DNA of 64,000 nucleotides from Clostridia bacterium (GTDB taxonomy: Bacteria; Bacillota; Clostridia; UBA1381; UMGS1253): the NCBI GenBank assembly GCA_045590935.1, contig JAZNSA010000018.1, forward strand, positions 1,512 to 65,511, written 5' to 3'. The notes beneath the pieces are model-generated. The model searched no databases and was not told where the DNA came from. It worked only from the letters and a program-made list of their open reading frames with translations. Below are positions 10,598 to 62,886 of the stretch, one piece after another. Both the position numbers and the translations under genes were made by a program. How positions within the stretch are numbered: the first letter of the stretch is position 1; every line of letters starts with the position of its first letter.

Positions 10598-10685
10598 ACG
10601 ATGATTAAATCGCAATTAAAAAAGCCTCCTCATCCGTCAAACCTTATGGTTTTTCACCTTCCCCTCAAGGGAAAGGCTTGAGGCA
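10596..10685 (+). repeat. R-family mosaic repeat, partial copy R1
   Basis: It begins at the rsuA stop with gtaaacgatgattaaat, the same 15-mer as the inverted right end of R2. It then carries cctcatccgtcaaaccttatggttt and the palindrome ccttcccctcaagggaaagg, both shared with R3/R4. Confidence 0.7.
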
Positions 10686-41059: not shown

Positions 41060-41202
41060 GTTATCGTTGAATTTGTTTGGCAAGCCGTTGCCCATTTTTA
41101 TTGATTTCATAATCGTAATAAGATTCCATTTTTACTGTTTCGCCATTAACAGTAATTTTGCTTCCTTCTTCTGCAACAATTAAAATGTTAACTTGTCAAT
41201 AA

Positions 41203-41298
41203 TGAAATCCGTCTTTTATCCGCCGTAGGCGATTTCATATGCGTAGCAGATTTCATCCACCGCAGGTGGATTTCTTCCGTCTGTTAAGACGGATTTAC
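41203..41298 (-). repeat. D-family structured repeat, copy D1 (downstream of ssrA terminator)
   Basis: Read on the minus strand, it is bounded by AAATCCGTCT ... AGACGGATTT inverted repeats. It shares runs of 18, 10 and 21 identical nt with D2 at 57752-57850. Confidence 0.75.
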
Positions 41299-41301
41299 AT
41301 G

Positions 41302-41342: not shown

Positions 41343-41691
41343 TGGTGGAGGCGAGGAGAGTCGAACTCCTGTCCGAAAACATATCCGCATAGGCGTCTCC
41401 GGGTGCAGTTTGTGGTCAAAATTCCCTTCGTTATAAGTCCGCAAACAAACTTATAACGTCAGTAGCTTCATTAGTCATGTTCGGCGCAAAGCTTAACCGA
41501 ATCACGTTCACTGCAAAATGACGCCCTGTCCCGAGCTGCAGTCTTCTCAGGCAGAACGGCCGCCGTTAATTAGGCAGCGTAAGCTAAATCTTTATTAGCG
41601 TTTATATTTAAAAAATTGAGCTTTTAAAGTGGCGCCCAACCACTACCCGCTTCCCACGGTTCAACGTCCCCGTCGAAACCGGTACGCCCCC
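41343..41691 (-). ncRNA. ssrA: transfer-messenger RNA (tmRNA, SsrA), 349 nt
   Basis: The 5' end GGGGGCGTACCGGTTTCGACGGGG pairs with the 3' end CGCCTCCACCA (G3:U pair). The T-arm is GGAGTTCGACTCTCC. The internal reading frame GCT AAT AAA GAT TTA GCT TAC GCT GCC TAA gives predicted tag ANKDLAYAA. It lies immediately downstream of smpB. Confidence 0.9.
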
Positions 41692-41831: not shown

Positions 41832-42299
41832 TTATTTATTCCTTTCCCTCAGCGCCCTCTCTATATCACGCTTCGCATCTCTTCTTGCTGCATCCTCTCT
41901 CTTATCGTAAAGCTTTTTACCTTTGCATACCGCAAGCTCAACCTTAACCTTGGAATTTTTAAGATACATACTCAAAGGCACAAGCGAATACCCCATCTGC
42001 GCCGTTATGCCAATCAATTTTCTTATTTCATTTTTATGCAAAAGAAGCTTCCTTACTCTAAGCGGGTCTTTATTAAAAATATTCCCCTTTTCATAGGGAC
42101 TTATATGCATCCCATGCACAAATATTTCTTCCGTTTTGCTGACACTTGCATAAGAATCCTTTAAATTAACGCTTCCCTGACGAACAGATTTAACCTCTGT
42201 TCCAAAAAGCTCTATTCCCGCCTCATAAACGTCCTCAATAAAATAATCATGTCGTGCTTTTTTGTTTTGAGCAATTATTTTTTTAGCATCGTTTGCCAT
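41832..42299 (-). CDS. smpB: SsrA-binding protein SmpB
   Basis: [11 protein letters not shown] and GTEVKSVR; 155 aa with a basic C-terminal tail. Confidence 0.95.
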
Positions 42300-52220: not shown

Positions 52221-53156
52221 ATGAATTTCAAAAAAATCATTATGTGTGTATTTTTTATTGCCATAATGACATATATGATTTTGTTTCCCGAAAAAGCTGT
52301 TTTTGCATCAAAACATTCACTGCTTTTGTGCTACGAAGCAATTTTACCCTCTCTTTTCGTATTTTTAATATGCTCATCATTTTTAACCAAAATAGGCTTT
52401 GCAAACATTTTAGAAAAGCCGTTTTCAAAAATTATGAGCCCTCTGTTTGGTATAAGCGGCAAGGGGGCTCTTCCTATGATTTTAGGCTACATAAGCGGCT
52501 ACCCCATAGGCTCAGTATGCATTTGCGAAATGTATAAGGCGGGCGATTTAAAAAAGCGTGAGGCAGAAAAAATGCTTGGCTTTTGTAACAATGCAGGACC
52601 ATTATTTATAATAGGAAGCATAGGTCTTACTCTTCTCGGCAACAAGCATATAGGATATATTCTTTATGGGTTTCATATTCTTTCTTCTGTTATCGTCGGA
52701 ATTTTATTTAGATTTTTTGTTAAAACTAATACTGCAGATAAATACGATTGTAATACAAGCATTTTTGGTATAAGACTTTCAAACGCCGTAACAGAAAGCA
52801 TTTCCTCATCAATTTCTTCTATATTAACGATTTGCGCCTATACTGTTTTATTTTCGGTTATCATCTCTATGTCATTTGATTTTTTTCCCGCCTCAAAGGA
52901 AAGCCTTATACTTAGAGGCATTGTAGAAATAACAAACGGAATTTCAAAAATTTGCGATACTGATGTTTTTTTTGATGGCGTACAATCAAAACTTCCCATC
53001 ATATCATTTATCTTAGGCTTTGGCGGGTTTTGCGTTCATTTGCAAGTAATAAGCATCGTAAAAAAAGCAGGCCTTAAAACAGACCTCTATTTCGTTGGAA
53101 AAATTATTCAGGCTTCACTTTCGTCCTTGTTTGTATTGACATATATTAGTATGTAG
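52221..53156 (+). CDS. ylbJ: sporulation integral membrane protein YlbJ (nucleoside-recognition domain)
   Basis: 311 aa multi-pass protein with GISGKGALPMILGYISGYPIG and FCNNAGPLFIIG, typical of YlbJ. Confidence 0.75.
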   Translation: MNFKKIIMCVFFIAIMTYMILFPEKAVFASKHSLLLCYEAILPSLFVFLICSSFLTKIGFANILEKPFSKIMSPLFGISGKGALPMILGYISGYPIGSVCICEMYKAGDLKKREAEKMLGFCNNAGPLFIIGSIGLTLLGNKHIGYILYGFHILSSVIVGILFRFFVKTNTADKYDCNTSIFGIRLSNAVTESISSSISSILTICAYTVLFSVIISMSFDFFPASKESLILRGIVEITNGISKICDTDVFFDGVQSKLPIISFILGFGGFCVHLQVISIVKKAGLKTDLYFVGKIIQASLSSLFVLTYISM

Positions 53157-53165
53157 TGATATAAT
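53136..53165 (+). promoter_or_regulatory. near-consensus sigma-A promoter driving G element copy 1
   Basis: TTGACA (53136-53141), an 18-nt spacer, then TATAAT (53160-53165). It overlaps the last codons of ylbJ. Confidence 0.5.
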
Positions 53166-53324
53166 GGATTCATACGATGTATGAACTCAACTAATCTTGC
53201 CCATTCGGGCAAGTGAAGTTATCTTCGATAGTGAAGTTTAACAAGTTAAGTGAAGTTTCGCCTTACGGCGAAGTGGCAAACTTAACTTCACTTTGAACTG
53301 TGGTTCAAAACTTCACCAAAAAGG
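53166..53324 (+). repeat. G-family structured element copy G1 (candidate structured RNA)
   Basis: 151/159 nt identical to 55671-55829 by manual alignment. It has hairpins ttcatac-gat-gtatgaa, ttgccc-attc-gggcaa, ttcgcc-ttac-ggcgaa and tttgaac-tgtg-gttcaaa. It carries three GTGAAGTT words (53213, 53231, 53250) and two AACTTCAC words (53284, 53309). Confidence 0.8.
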
Positions 53325-53452
53325 CTTCTCCTTGAGGAGAGGCTCCGACGAAGGCGGTGGTGAGGTGTAGGATACGAAGTATCCGTTAATTTCTTCCACC
53401 TCATCCGTCAAACCTTACGGTTTTGCCACCTTCCCCTCGAGGGGAAGGCTTG
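53323..53452 (+). repeat. R-family mosaic repeat, copy R3
   Basis: Four serial hairpins: ggcttctcc-ttga-ggagaggct; ggtgaggtg...cacctcatc enclosing ggatac-gaa-gtatcc; aaacc-ttac-ggttt; and ccttcccc-tcga-ggggaagg. Confidence 0.75.
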
Positions 53453-53457
53453 AACAA

Positions 53458-53540
53458 GTGGTATCTAAGTCGTGGTACTTTTATATAATATTATAAAAAT
53501 TAGCTTTATAAAATAAGCTAAAAAGAAAGGATGATTAATT
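53458..53540 (+). promoter_or_regulatory. P module copy 1: duplicated promoter/5' UTR upstream of the lipoprotein gene
   Basis: About 90 percent identical to the reverse complement of 62664-62745. It contains GTGGTA direct repeats, the 12-bp palindrome TATAATATTATA (53484-53495) and the SD AAAGGA. Confidence 0.6.
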
Positions 53541-55641: not shown

Positions 55642-55670
55642 TTGACAAAAATATATCGTGATGGTATAAT
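55642..55670 (+). promoter_or_regulatory. consensus sigma-A promoter driving G element copy 2 and ispDF
   Basis: TTGACA (55642-55647), a 17-nt spacer ending in TGG, then TATAAT (55665-55670). Confidence 0.55.
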
Positions 55671-55829
55671 GAGTTCATACGATGTATGAACTAAACTAAG
55701 TTTGCCCATTCGGGCAAGTGAAGTTATCTTCGATAGTGAAGTTTAGCAAGTTAAGTGAAGTTTCGCCTTACGGCGAAGTGGCAAACTTAACTTCACTTTG
55801 AGCTTTGGTTCAAAACTTCACCAAAAAGG
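55671..55829 (+). repeat. G-family structured element copy G2 (candidate 5' leader of ispD-ispF)
   Basis: See G1. It runs without an obvious terminator into the ispD ATG at 55903. Confidence 0.8.
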
Positions 55830-55902
55830 TGGCATCAAACCATTCACTAATTATATAATTTATTTATAGGTCAAGTAAATATTTAATAGGCGGTGTTAAA
55901 GC

Positions 55903-56616
55903 ATGAAAAAATGCGGAGCTATTATCGTTGCCGCAGGTGTCGGCAGACGTATGAACTCAAACAAAAACAAGGTTTTTCTGCCTTTGAAGAACGTTCCTTT
56001 GCTTGCAAAAACACTTACGGCTTTTCAAAATTGTAATAAAATAGGCGGAATTGTTGTTGTAACAAGAGACTGCGATTTTGATGAAGTTTTAAAAATAAAA
56101 GCAGATTATAATATAAGCAAGCTTATTAAAGTAACAATGGGCGGCAATGAAAGGCAAGAGTCTGTTCTAAACGGGTTGGAGGCTCTTGGCAACGATTTTG
56201 ATTTCGTTGCCATACACGACGGCGCAAGGTGTCTTGTAAGCGAAACAGATATTTTAAGCTGCATAGCAGATGCAGAAAAGTATGGTGCGGCGGCTCTCGG
56301 TGTACCAGCTAAGGACAGCATAAAAAAAATTGATGAGCTCGGCTTTATAGAGTGCGATATAGACCGAAAAACAGCCATCAATATACAAACTCCGCAAGTT
56401 TTTAAATACGACGAAATTTTATCTGCACACAAGCAGGCAAGAGAGCAAAGCCTGACGGTTACTGACGATACTGCACTCTACTCTTTCTTTGGAAAAAAGG
56501 TTTTCGTAACAATCGGAAGCTACGAAAATATTAAAATAACAACAAGAGAAGATATTGACCTTGCGCAGCTTATTTTAAACAGGGGGGAAACCGCGAAAGG
56601 AGCTGAAAACAAATGA
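55903..56616 (+). CDS. ispD: 2-C-methyl-D-erythritol 4-phosphate cytidylyltransferase
   Basis: AIIVAAGVGRRM, VAIHDGARC and QTPQVF; 237 aa. Confidence 0.92.
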   Translation: MKKCGAIIVAAGVGRRMNSNKNKVFLPLKNVPLLAKTLTAFQNCNKIGGIVVVTRDCDFDEVLKIKADYNISKLIKVTMGGNERQESVLNGLEALGNDFDFVAIHDGARCLVSETDILSCIADAEKYGAAALGVPAKDSIKKIDELGFIECDIDRKTAINIQTPQVFKYDEILSAHKQAREQSLTVTDDTALYSFFGKKVFVTIGSYENIKITTREDIDLAQLILNRGETAKGAENK

Positions 56617-57086
56617 GGATAGGACATGGATATGATGTACACAGGCTTGAGGAGGGTAGAAATCTAATTCTTTGCGGCATAGACGTTCCGTATAGCAAAG
56701 GGCTCTTGGGTCATTCCGATGCAGATGTTGCAACCCACGCACTTATGGATGCAATTTTGGGTGCGGCGGCTCTTGGCGATATAGGTCTTCTCTTTCCCGA
56801 TAACGACAACAAATATAAGGATATATACAGTATTCTCCTTCTTAAAGAAGTTGTAGAAAAAATAAAATCAATTGGCTATACCGTTTCAAATGCGGATATA
56901 ACAATTATAGCCCAAGAACCAAAGCTTAGAAATTTTATAGAGCAAATGCGTAAAAGCATTTCAAAAGCGTGCGAAACGGATATAGACAATATCAATATCA
57001 AGGCAACAACAACCGAAAAATTAGGCTTTGAAGGGGAAGGTCTTGCTATCAGCGCACACGCTGTTGTTTTAATTGAGAAGTATTAA
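56613..57086 (+). CDS. ispF: 2-C-methyl-D-erythritol 2,4-cyclodiphosphate synthase
   Basis: RIGHGYDVHRL, GHSDADVATHA and DITIIAQEPK; 157 aa. It overlaps the ispD stop. Confidence 0.95.
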   Translation: MRIGHGYDVHRLEEGRNLILCGIDVPYSKGLLGHSDADVATHALMDAILGAAALGDIGLLFPDNDNKYKDIYSILLLKEVVEKIKSIGYTVSNADITIIAQEPKLRNFIEQMRKSISKACETDIDNINIKATTTEKLGFEGEGLAISAHAVVLIEKY

Positions 57087-57141: not shown

Positions 57142-57170
57142 TTGACAAATAATAAATATATGTGTATAAT
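57142..57170 (+). promoter_or_regulatory. perfect consensus sigma-A promoter of the micro-ORF operon
   Basis: TTGACA (57142-57147), a 17-nt spacer, then TATAAT (57165-57170). Confidence 0.55.
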
Positions 57171-57213
57171 GTATGTGTATAGACGTTATAATATAGTTTT
57201 TGTGGAGGTGAAA

Positions 57214-57324
57214 ATGATGAAAAAGTATGAATGTCCCGATTTGGAAGTTGTTACATTTGAAGAAGAAATTATGTCAGACCTTGTTTTTAGTATTATAGGT
57301 AACGAAGATGGTGGCGAGTATTAA
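57214..57324 (+). CDS. acidic micro-protein A (36 aa), paralogue of B; candidate precursor peptide or small regulator
   Basis: MMKKYECPDLEVVTFEEEIMSDLVFSIIGNEDGGEY, with SD GGAGGTG 5 nt upstream. It is hidden inside the spurious 83-aa track ORF 57073-57324. Confidence 0.55.
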   Translation: MMKKYECPDLEVVTFEEEIMSDLVFSIIGNEDGGEY

Positions 57325-57369
57325 TTTCTTAATTTTTTTCTGTAATCATTTTTAGGAGGATAGATAGTT

Positions 57370-57477
57370 ATGAAGACATACGAGAGTCCGGTTGTAGATA
57401 TAATTTCTTTTGAAGAAGAAATTATGTCAAACGTTGTTACAAGCATCCCCGGCATAGAAGATGGTGGAGATTTCTGA
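57370..57477 (+). CDS. acidic micro-protein B (35 aa), paralogue of A
   Basis: MKTYESPVVDIISFEEEIMSNVVTSIPGIEDGGDF, with SD AGGAGG 9 nt upstream. 20/35 residues are identical to A, and a 21-nt block is identical at the DNA level. Confidence 0.55.
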   Translation: MKTYESPVVDIISFEEEIMSNVVTSIPGIEDGGDF

Positions 57478-57553
57478 TAAATCTTTGCTTTCTTGTGTTG
57501 ATGTTGGCGTAACTTGTAGTTGTGTTTTTTACAATTTGGTTAATACGTAAAAA

Positions 57554-57635: not shown

Positions 57636-57712
57636 GTGCCCGTAGCTCAGCTGGATAGAGTAACAGACTCCGACTCTGTAGGTCGTGCGTTCGAATCGCA
57701 TCGGGCATACCA
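57636..57712 (+). tRNA. tRNA-Arg (anticodon CCG), CCA encoded
   Basis: Manual cloverleaf: acceptor GTGCCCG/CGGGCAT, D-arm GCTC-AGCTGGATA-GAGT, anticodon arm ACAGA-CTCCGAC-TCTGT, T-arm GTGCG-TTCGAAT-CGCAT, discriminator A plus CCA; 77 nt. Confidence 0.9.
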
Positions 57713-57751: not shown

Positions 57752-57850
57752 TAAATCCGTCTGCGGCGAAATAAATCCATCTATGGTGGATGAAATCTGC
57801 TAACGCTGACGAAATCGCCTGCGGCGGATAAAAGACGGATTTAATTTCAT
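57752..57850 (+). repeat. D-family structured repeat, copy D2 (downstream of tRNA-Arg terminator)
   Basis: TAAATCCGTCT ... AGACGGATTT inverted termini. It is homologous to the reverse complement of 41203-41298. Extra GATTTC words continue to about 57905. Confidence 0.75.
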
Positions 57851-57932
57851 CAAAACGAAAGCTTGGATTTCACCGTGAGAGTATCGAACGATTTCATTGA
57901 AATTAAGTGTCATCTGAACAGTTCGCATCTTT

Positions 57933-62750: not shown

Positions 62751-62886
62751 AAAGGCTTCCCCTTGAGTGGAAGCTGTCAACGATAGTTGACTGATGAGGT
62801 GTAGAATACGAAGTATTCGTCAAATCATTTTCACCTCATCCGTCAGGCAAGCGGTCCCCCTTCCCCTCAAGGGGAAGGCTTTTTTC
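62751..62886 (+). repeat. R-family mosaic repeat, copy R4
   Basis: It has the same hairpin series as R3: gatgaggtg...cacctcatc enclosing gaatac-gaa-gtattc, then ccttcccc-tcaa-ggggaagg followed here by CTTTTTT. It also carries the gtcaac-gata-gttgac hairpin shared with R2. Confidence 0.75.

Follow-up and report, generated by a model that had tools for sequence, protein, structure and literature searches.

Two Gut-1-family hairpin-word repeats, one of them upstream of ispD-ispF, in a Clostridia genome

Among the multi-copy modular repeats of bacterial intergenic regions, REP/BIME of Enterobacteria and BOX of Streptococcus pneumoniae lie mostly just downstream of genes, and their transcripts fold into stable stem-loops that can stabilise or destabilise the host mRNA. 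Another described system is the RNA motif Gut-1, which consists of three hairpins, each followed by GUGAAAU; it was found only in human gut metagenomes and in no sequenced organism, and was described as a likely non-coding RNA, not cis-regulatory and with no known function (Weinberg et al., 2010; PMC2864571). We found no literature on Gut-1 later than this description. Here, we analyzed a 64-kb stretch of low-GC DNA (38%) from a spore-forming Clostridia bacterium (contig JAZNSA010000018.1; the whole stretch is hereafter called the window), which contains two almost identical elements, G1 (53166–53324, + strand) and G2 (55671–55829, + strand). G2 precedes the genes ispD and ispF of the methylerythritol phosphate (MEP) pathway, and a preliminary description had taken it for their dedicated leader, with a match to no known RNA. 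Our results indicate that G1 and G2 are variants of Gut-1, and their identity and architecture as repeats of this family are close to certain.

A permissive scan with the Rfam models gave 42.8 bits for G2 (55693–55766) and 42.3 bits for G1 against Gut-1 (RF01706; model length 77 nt), both with E values of about 2e-6. These scores fall short of the gathering threshold of 50 bits; the cmscan alignments span model positions 1–77 and contain all three hairpin-then-word units, with GUGAAGU as the word. Homologues of the same architecture scored 52 and 51 bits (locus L152), 48.2 bits (L219), and 46.2 bits (L198), and the G type straddles the threshold. Because the G-type members at L152 exceed it, we regard G as a word variant of Gut-1. 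A covariance model built from 28 sequences of other genomes, with the window sequences excluded (model R1), detected G2 with 112.8 bits (E = 2.6e-26; 55694–55796) and G1 with 110.6 bits (53189–53291), both with full coverage of the model. The whole plan is also visible in the flanks of the original Gut-1 alignment, in which GUGAUAU is followed by four copies of AUAUCAC, and the copies in that alignment follow either a stop codon and a hairpin or a tRNA (PMC2864571). Judged from these sequences, the full unit is larger than the Rfam Gut-1 model, which represents its 5′ half only.

The extent of this unit was examined in homologues. One genome per species was scanned with a pattern of three GTGAAGTT words, which returned at least 119 loci, and true hairpin-word arrays were present in 84 of the 119 loci listed, i.e., in at least 84 in all. 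Among the matches listed, the array-bearing loci were almost all from metagenome-assembled genomes (MAGs) of gut, cecum, and rumen Clostridia, and the carrier lineages were Oscillospiraceae, Acutalibacteraceae, Christensenellaceae, “Ca. Scatosoma,” and Faecousia. Several MAG contigs had more than one copy, and the copy number appears to be in the tens, not the hundreds. On viral contigs, the pattern of three GTGAART words mostly returned tandem-repeat noise, the real arrays among the matches listed being L010, L037, L038, and L073. A lineage-specific pattern matched only four short contigs in metagenomes, and no match was found in the phage and plasmid collections.

We oriented 39 composite elements on their asymmetric centre and compared their architecture. 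The common plan begins with a long, lineage-specific hairpin, P0, and continues with AAC and a segment X (UAAGUUUGCCC), which together with a loop and GGGCAA forms hairpin H1. Three GUGAAGUU words with two small hairpins between them occupy the middle, followed by hairpin H4 and a segment X′ (GGGCAAACUUA). The 3′ part consists of two to four AACUUCAC anti-words with hairpins between them, and an intrinsic terminator often comes next. Three words and four anti-words were present in 25 of the 39 elements. The hairpins that separate the words comprised 42 distinct sequences and those that separate the anti-words 65, the number of modules varied, and the 3′ halves were mosaic between copies of one genome. 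A CRISPR array, which is accompanied by cas genes, has constant repeats of 23–50 nt and variable spacers that are about 30 nt long and not palindromic. This possibility was rejected here, where the constant unit is 8 nt, the variable units are hairpins of 9–20 nt, and no neighbouring genes recur.

G1 and G2 can now be read against this plan. Each is 159 nt long, and in an ungapped alignment 151 of the 159 positions are identical, the substitutions being at element positions 2, 3, 23, 30, 31, 76, 132, and 135. The identity breaks off sharply 3′ of the tail CAAAAAGG, which forms the 3′ end of the element; upstream, the shared bases are the promoter hexamers and a few neighbouring ones, and the promoter spacers have diverged. 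The word GTGAAGTT occurs 10 times in the window (2.1 expected), always within G1 or G2, with three forward and two reverse occurrences per copy. In G2, which is delimited by its sequence, its word positions, and its covariance-model and Rfam matches, the parts are the P0 hairpin (55672–55692), segment X (TAAGTTTGCCC; 55697–55707), hairpin H1 (55702–55717), the forward words (55718–25, 55736–43, and 55755–62) with hairpins H2 and H3 between them, hairpin H4 (55762–55777), segment X′ (GGCAAACTTA; 55780–55789), and the reverse words (55789–96 and 55814–21) with hairpin H5 between them, all on the + strand. The parts of G1 have the same coordinates minus 2505, and its X has two changes (TAATCTTGCCC) that weaken the X:X′ pairing. 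Both copies are short versions of the family, in that they have two anti-words and no terminator, and they miss the full-length feature of three or four anti-words followed by a terminator. Compared with shuffled sequences, the fold of G2 has z = −5.9. Of the substitutions in stems, those at positions 76 and 132 exchange A-U and G-U, and that at position 31, at the base of the ttgccc stem, exchanges C-G and U-G. The preliminary description had reported two 159-nt copies with 151 identical positions, three direct and two complementary words in each, a series of hairpins, and stem substitutions that keep the pairing, and these particulars were confirmed, the hairpins by their covariation across homologues.

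Covariation was evaluated in an alignment of 31 sequences. In H2–H4, 11 pairs were changed on both sides, in 74 cells, and none of 500 shuffles reached this level; the covariation score was 0.337, compared with 0.03–0.074 when the partners were slid against each other. The remaining irregular pairs are informative about the strand. In the 5′ half, 13 G-U pairs were counted against three A-C, and the anti-word hairpins contained 32 G.A or A.G but only five U.C or C.U mismatches. A tandem GA/AG mismatch flanked by covarying pairs was found in 12 of the 65 distinct anti-word hairpins. Because the opposite strand would carry pyrimidine mismatches at these sites, the word-first (+) strand is the selected one. 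On this pattern of base changes, we conclude that the + (word-forward) orientation is selected as a single strand, which agrees with the structured element on the transcribed strand that had been proposed at the outset.

The element also contains two helices that exclude each other, since X has two possible partners, the 3′ arm of H1 and, over 10–11 bp, X′. In 23 distinct variants, two columns of X change from U-A to G-C (four rows) and from U-A to C-G (three rows), and these changes are matched in both partners, the H1 arm and X′; no shuffle of 500 reached these counts. The other single changes in X:X′ are mostly G-U, and the 5′ part of X repeats the tail of the local word. Words and anti-words change jointly across four subfamilies, whose pairs are GUGAAGUU/AACUUCAC, GGUGAAAUC/GAUUUCACC, AUGAAAUC/GAUUUCAU, and GUGAUAU/AUAUCAC. 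The anti-words, which lay outside the search pattern, comprised 96 perfect 8-mers and 11 with a single mismatch. Mutually exclusive pairing had been suggested previously from a pentamer periodicity of the words. The idea itself stands, in the form of the covarying X/H1/X′ helices and of words that are complementary to anti-words, and pentamer registers are not needed for it. In minimum-energy folds, the words pair with the anti-words and H1 is kept (z from −9 to −10). Forcing the X:X′ helix costs about 9 kcal/mol in G2 and L219 and about 19 kcal/mol in G1 with its two X mismatches (−26.1 vs. −45.3 kcal/mol for the minimum-energy fold). The spectrum of word variants was considered as a test of G-U tolerance and dropped because the variants were too few. 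A likeness of the word to helix h44 of the 16S rRNA (GUGAAGU), noticed by eye, was dropped because it fails for the other word subfamilies, and so were the by-eye resemblances to a k-turn or C-box, to integron attC sites, to the GAAA tetraloop receptor, and to a non-canonical word-word pairing around the hairpins.

Each copy in the window follows a TG-extended promoter of the sigma-70 type, TTGACA-17-TATAAT before G2 (55642–55670, + strand) and TTGACA-18-TATAAT before G1 (53136–53165, + strand), the latter overlapping the end of an open reading frame (ORF; 52221–53156). Both match the consensus at 12 of 12 positions, as the first reading of the sequence had indicated, and they are two of only three perfect TTGACA-N16–18-TATAAT sites in the whole window, in which shuffling predicts 0.04. 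G1 and G2 are probably strongly transcribed. The predicted start, about 7 nt past the −10 hexamer, lands within the 5′ arm of the 9-bp P0 hairpin, so the RNA may keep only the inner 4–5 bp of P0. This would fit the finding that three of the eight substitutions between G1 and G2 lie in, or just past, the outer part of the hairpin. A clear promoter abutting P0 was seen only at the window copies and at L212, and L247 and L248 have at most a weak −10-like motif. A promoter was thus rejected as a family-wide feature, none being visible beside P0 outside AT-rich lineages. At L212 (3654–4071), which belongs to a low-GC MAG of the Clostridia, a G-type element with a promoter is followed after 60 nt by a 6S RNA gene (Rfam, 58.1 bits), and from this spacing the element and the 6S RNA may share a precursor.

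We also analyzed the genes around the family members. When ORFs of 150 aa or more were considered, the nearest one upstream shared the strand of the element in 23 cases and lay on the other strand in seven, and it usually ended 0–65 nt before X. The 25 same-strand upstream genes that were scanned are unrelated housekeeping genes. The commonest setting of all is between convergent genes, and some copies lie 3′ of tRNA clusters. Neither ispD nor any other class of genes is linked to the family, whose members are usually located just 3′ of a same-strand gene or a stable-RNA gene. All-against-all clustering of the ORFs at 84 loci revealed no protein family that recurs near the elements, and no transposase or RAYT-like gene was detected within about 4 kb of these loci. 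A dedicated neighbour protein was therefore rejected: only generic families (ABC ATPase and BspA leucine-rich repeat) and, at one orthologous locus, a gene for a 23S rRNA-intervening-sequence protein (23S-IVP) were found. The order RlmD-like gene, element, 23S-IVP gene is kept where the RlmD-like proteins are only 39–46% identical. This situation was found at L149, L152 (497–1047), and L183, where the element lies between the gene for an RlmD-like methyltransferase and the 23S-IVP gene, which encodes a four-helix-bundle protein of 117 aa and has its ribosome-binding site 10–20 nt past the last anti-word. At the same three loci, and also at L214 and L234, long upstream ORFs cross P0 and stop at a UAA in X (AAC-UAA-GUUUGCC); a stop codon supplied by the element at X is as expected after insertion into the 3′ end of a gene.

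The position of G2 had suggested a leader dedicated to ispD-ispF, i.e., a riboswitch or attenuator that senses a signal of the MEP pathway. The ispD gene (55903–56616, + strand; Pfam IspD, 2.2e-57) lies downstream of G2 and is followed by ispF (56613–57086, + strand; Pfam YgbB, 9e-67). A scan of the interval 55829–55903 found no terminator-like site on the + strand, and the terminator-free run of G2 into the ispD ATG at 55903, which had been noted before, was borne out. A riboswitch would be consistent with this placement between a perfect promoter and ispD and with the covarying, mutually exclusive helices. However, no pairing to the ispD ribosome-binding site was found within the same interval, and beside ispD there is neither a terminator nor a platform that sequesters the Shine-Dalgarno sequence. 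Of 10 homologues with a same-strand gene no more than 120 nt downstream, IspD is the downstream protein in one, which is the window copy itself. No element precedes ispD at the recoverable loci of the three closest relatives of IspD (70, 67, and 59% identity): in one, a plain TTGACA-17-TATAAT promoter and a short leader take its place, and in the other two ispD starts 26 or 2 nt past the previous gene. The sister copy G1 precedes a lipoprotein-like ORF unrelated to ispD, and most family members are located 3′ of genes. As a statement about the family, the riboswitch reading is already refuted, and we give it almost no credence for G2, so that a false annotation as an MEP-pathway riboswitch is avoided. 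The preliminary description had named an outcome that would reduce the element to a plain dispersed DNA repeat; its one half, the missing link to ispD, is what we observed, whereas its other half, homologues scattered in both orientations with no covariation, is not. A second TATAAT (55854–55859) lies 25 nt past G2 and aligns with the −10 hexamer of the plain promoter that precedes ispD in the relative with 70% identity (L240, 1397–1425). This match suggests that G2 was inserted with its own promoter upstream of, or into, an older ispD promoter, which would now be without its −35 hexamer.

Based on these results, we favour, with confidence and doubt about evenly balanced, a reading in which G1 and G2 belong to a dispersed, modular RNA repeat of the Gut-1 family that acts in cis on any transcript that contains it. 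H1 and the small hairpins would be the first to form during transcription; X′ could next replace the H1 arm as the partner of X, which would close the word domain; and the anti-words, made last, would pair with the words to give a stable rod of 8–9-bp helices with side hairpins, which in G2 is predicted to be more stable than the X:X′ fold by about 9 kcal/mol. If REP/BIME and BOX are a guide, such a module would act generically, as a very stable block that affects the processing or decay of the carrier transcript, and would not sense an MEP-pathway metabolite. Because the copies have their own perfect promoters, G2 would provide ispD-ispF with a strong promoter and a structured 5′ untranslated region (UTR) by accident of position, and this placement would explain the unusually strong promoter and the long structured leader of these genes.

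Several points weigh against this reading, and the cis-acting role is its weak part. A role in stability or processing would follow from the analogy with REP/BIME and BOX and from position only, and the transcription start, 3′ end, and processing of the elements are predicted from sequence. With only two anti-words and no terminator, the window copies cannot adopt the full-length fold. The repetition of identical words leaves the register ambiguous, which is odd for an RNA with a single fold and would better fit a common trans-acting factor, and the joint change of words and anti-words is also expected from one double-stranded DNA site in two orientations. Moreover, a perfect promoter precedes each of the window copies, which points to a dedicated RNA product more than to a passive module, and clear promoters beside P0 were seen only at these copies and at L212.

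The strongest alternative, which we consider possible but rather doubtful, is that G1 and G2 are genes for trans-acting small RNAs (sRNAs). In the manner of CsrB/RsmZ or CrcZ, the repeated words, single-stranded and displayed by the hairpins, would be multivalent binding sites for a second RNA or for an oligomeric RNA-binding protein, which they would titrate or scaffold, and the anti-words and the X/X′ switch would mask or unmask the word sites. Two of the three perfect promoters of the window drive G1 and G2, with the hexamers kept, the spacers diverged, and the RNA body 95% identical. The words are near-invariant while the hairpins between them drift, as expected for a linker read by a factor, and the ambiguous register, the terminators of many full-length members, and the 2010 description, in which Gut-1 is a likely non-coding RNA with no cis-regulatory role (PMC2864571), point the same way. 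However, no partner is known, no neighbouring protein family recurs among the 84 loci, and most members have no recognisable promoter and are placed for co-transcription with the upstream gene; the presence of words together with their perfect complements in the same molecule would also favour self-pairing. With less confidence still, the hairpin-word arrays, including Gut-1, could be considered a distinct class of bacterial non-coding RNA with a function of its own, composed of multivalent, self-complementary “stickers” (the words and anti-words) and a conserved two-state X/H1/X′ switch. One possibility is that they would serve as a co-transcriptional timer, or form intermolecular word:anti-word assemblies or scaffolds. 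If this were true, the class would stand beside the other large orphan RNAs of Firmicutes.

The remaining alternatives are set at the level of DNA. It is unlikely, to about the same degree as the sticker class, that the family is a selfish, non-autonomous repeat of the REP/BIME or miniature inverted-repeat transposable element (MITE) type, in which a transposase acting on single-stranded DNA would recognise the hairpins and the constant words beside them, and both transcription and the folding of the RNA would be by-products. The repeat is indeed dispersed, multi-copy, and modular, with varying module number and mosaic 3′ halves within one genome; its flanking genes are unrelated, its presence upstream of ispD differs among relatives, and the upstream ORFs that cross P0 and stop at the TAA in X look like the result of insertion. 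It also co-occurs with a second, clearly palindromic repeat and is, like REPs, strand-specific and conserved in structure. Against this, the neighbourhoods scanned (84 loci) contained no transposase or RAYT-like gene and no target-site duplication was seen, the position between the RlmD-like and 23S-IVP genes is kept at 39–46% identity of the RlmD-like proteins, and perfect promoters are kept at both window copies. The hairpins differ within one element, unlike those of REP copies, and hairpins with tandem G.A pairs, like loops of the UUCG type, are characteristic of RNA. Far less probable is a double-stranded DNA array of protein sites, such as integrase arm-type sites, iterons, or transposon ends, in which words and anti-words would be one site in two orientations. 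Three forward and four reverse 8-bp words do lie within about 170 bp, some members adjoin tRNA or tmRNA genes, which are common integration sites, and a few copies occur in IMG/VR contigs. However, duplex binding does not explain the compensatory changes or the strand-specific G-U and G.A pairs in the spacers. The copy that adjoins the tmRNA gene of the window has no integrase beside it, recombinase families do not recur next to the elements, the forward and reverse arrays always stay joined, unlike attL and attR, and the phage and plasmid collections had no match. The integrase arm-site or attP idea, which arose from the adjacency to tmRNA and tRNA genes, was rejected for the missing integrase, the unsplit arrays, and the covariation of the hairpins on one strand.

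A search with model R1 detected four family members in the window, i.e., G1, G2, and two others located after stable-RNA genes. One of these (41202–41300, − strand) is of the Gut-1 type, with the words AGAAAU/AUGAAAU, and scores 57.9 bits with the Rfam Gut-1 model, above the gathering threshold of 50, and 31.8 bits with R1 (E = 8e-6). Its X is AAATCCGTCT, its H1 arm AGACGGA, and its X′ AGACGGATTT, so that the X/H1/X′ logic appears as AAAUCCGUCU/AGACGGA/AGACGGAUUU, with no clear anti-word array. It lies about 40 nt past the tmRNA gene (41343–41691) and its terminator, and smpB (41832–42299) is nearby. The other (57754–57900, + strand) has GAAAU words and follows the gene for tRNA-Arg(CCG) (57636–57712) and a terminator. 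It was detected by R1 at 57769–57850 (25.8 bits, E = 2.5e-4) and has X (AAAUCCGUCU), X′ (AGACGGAUUU), and three anti-words (AAUUUCAU, GAUUUCAC, and GAUUUCAU). It contains a tandem-G.A hairpin and is a paralogue of the tmRNA-adjacent copy.

A different repeat, palindromic and GC-rich, lies 3′ of G1 and outside the G core (53325–53470, + strand). Using nhmmer, further copies were detected at 62751–62881, where both strands match, at 10625–10682, and in L181, and the repeat aligns with L198. In the Rfam search it had no significant match, the sole match being whalefall-1 (16.1 bits, E = 1.2). Its ends are AAGCCTTCCCCTTGAGGGGAAGG and CCTTCCCCTCAAGGGGAAGGCTT around a GGTGAGGTG/CACCTCATCC stem, and it may be a MITE-like element. 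At L198 (700–830 and 3800–3930), arrays of three AUGAAUU words, each between hairpins, are fused head to tail with GUGAAGU arrays and are followed by the palindromic repeat and a shared motif, YAUUCGGUMARAGACCUC. Based on these fusions, we infer that intergenic repeats in such genomes form mosaics. The third perfect promoter of the window (57142–57170, + strand) precedes two small paralogous ORFs of about 35 aa, within 57142–57480; these were read by eye (MMKKYECPDLEVVTFEEEIMSDLVFSIIGNEDGGEY and MKTYESPVVDIISFEEEIMSNVVTSIPGIEDGGDF) and may encode secreted or modified peptides.

Finally, we compared the family with known systems. Like REP/BIME and BOX, it has many intergenic copies (four in the 64-kb window), a modular build, and unrelated flanks. 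However, REP or BOX copies of one genome share their hairpin sequence, whereas here the 8-nt words are constant and every hairpin differs. The family also differs from them in its apparent number of copies (tens vs. hundreds), no RAYT-type transposase was seen in the approximately 4 kb around the 84 loci, and the logic of words, anti-words, and X/X′ has no counterpart in REP or BOX. Sponge RNAs such as CsrB/RsmZ and CrcZ resemble the G family in the repetition of a short motif, its display by a series of hairpins, and their strong promoters. In CsrB, however, the motif (GGA) is in the hairpin loops, whereas the G-family word is a linker between hairpins and has a perfect complement in the same RNA; no partner protein is known for the G family. 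The sRNAs derived from 3′ UTRs, of the DapZ and CpxQ types, are similar in that the element lies directly past a stop codon and has its own terminator, and the promoter of G1 lies inside the end of the upstream ORF; these sRNAs are single-copy, with one gene each, whereas the G family is dispersed behind unrelated genes. The closest system is Gut-1, with which the G copies share the triplet of hairpin-then-word units, the covariation of the stems, and a gut source. The word differs (GUGAAAU in Gut-1 and GUGAAGUU in G), and compared with the 77-nt Rfam model the full unit is about 125–180 nt plus P0, adding the X/X′ pairing and the 3′ anti-word array. Since 2010, Gut-1 has been an orphan motif of 77 nt from human gut metagenomes, with neither a host organism nor a function assigned to it. 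Our analysis adds to it a larger unit, host lineages among the Clostridia, the rule of a position just after genes, and a doubly covarying switch, and its strand, ends, switch, and words provide concrete, testable handles on Gut-1.

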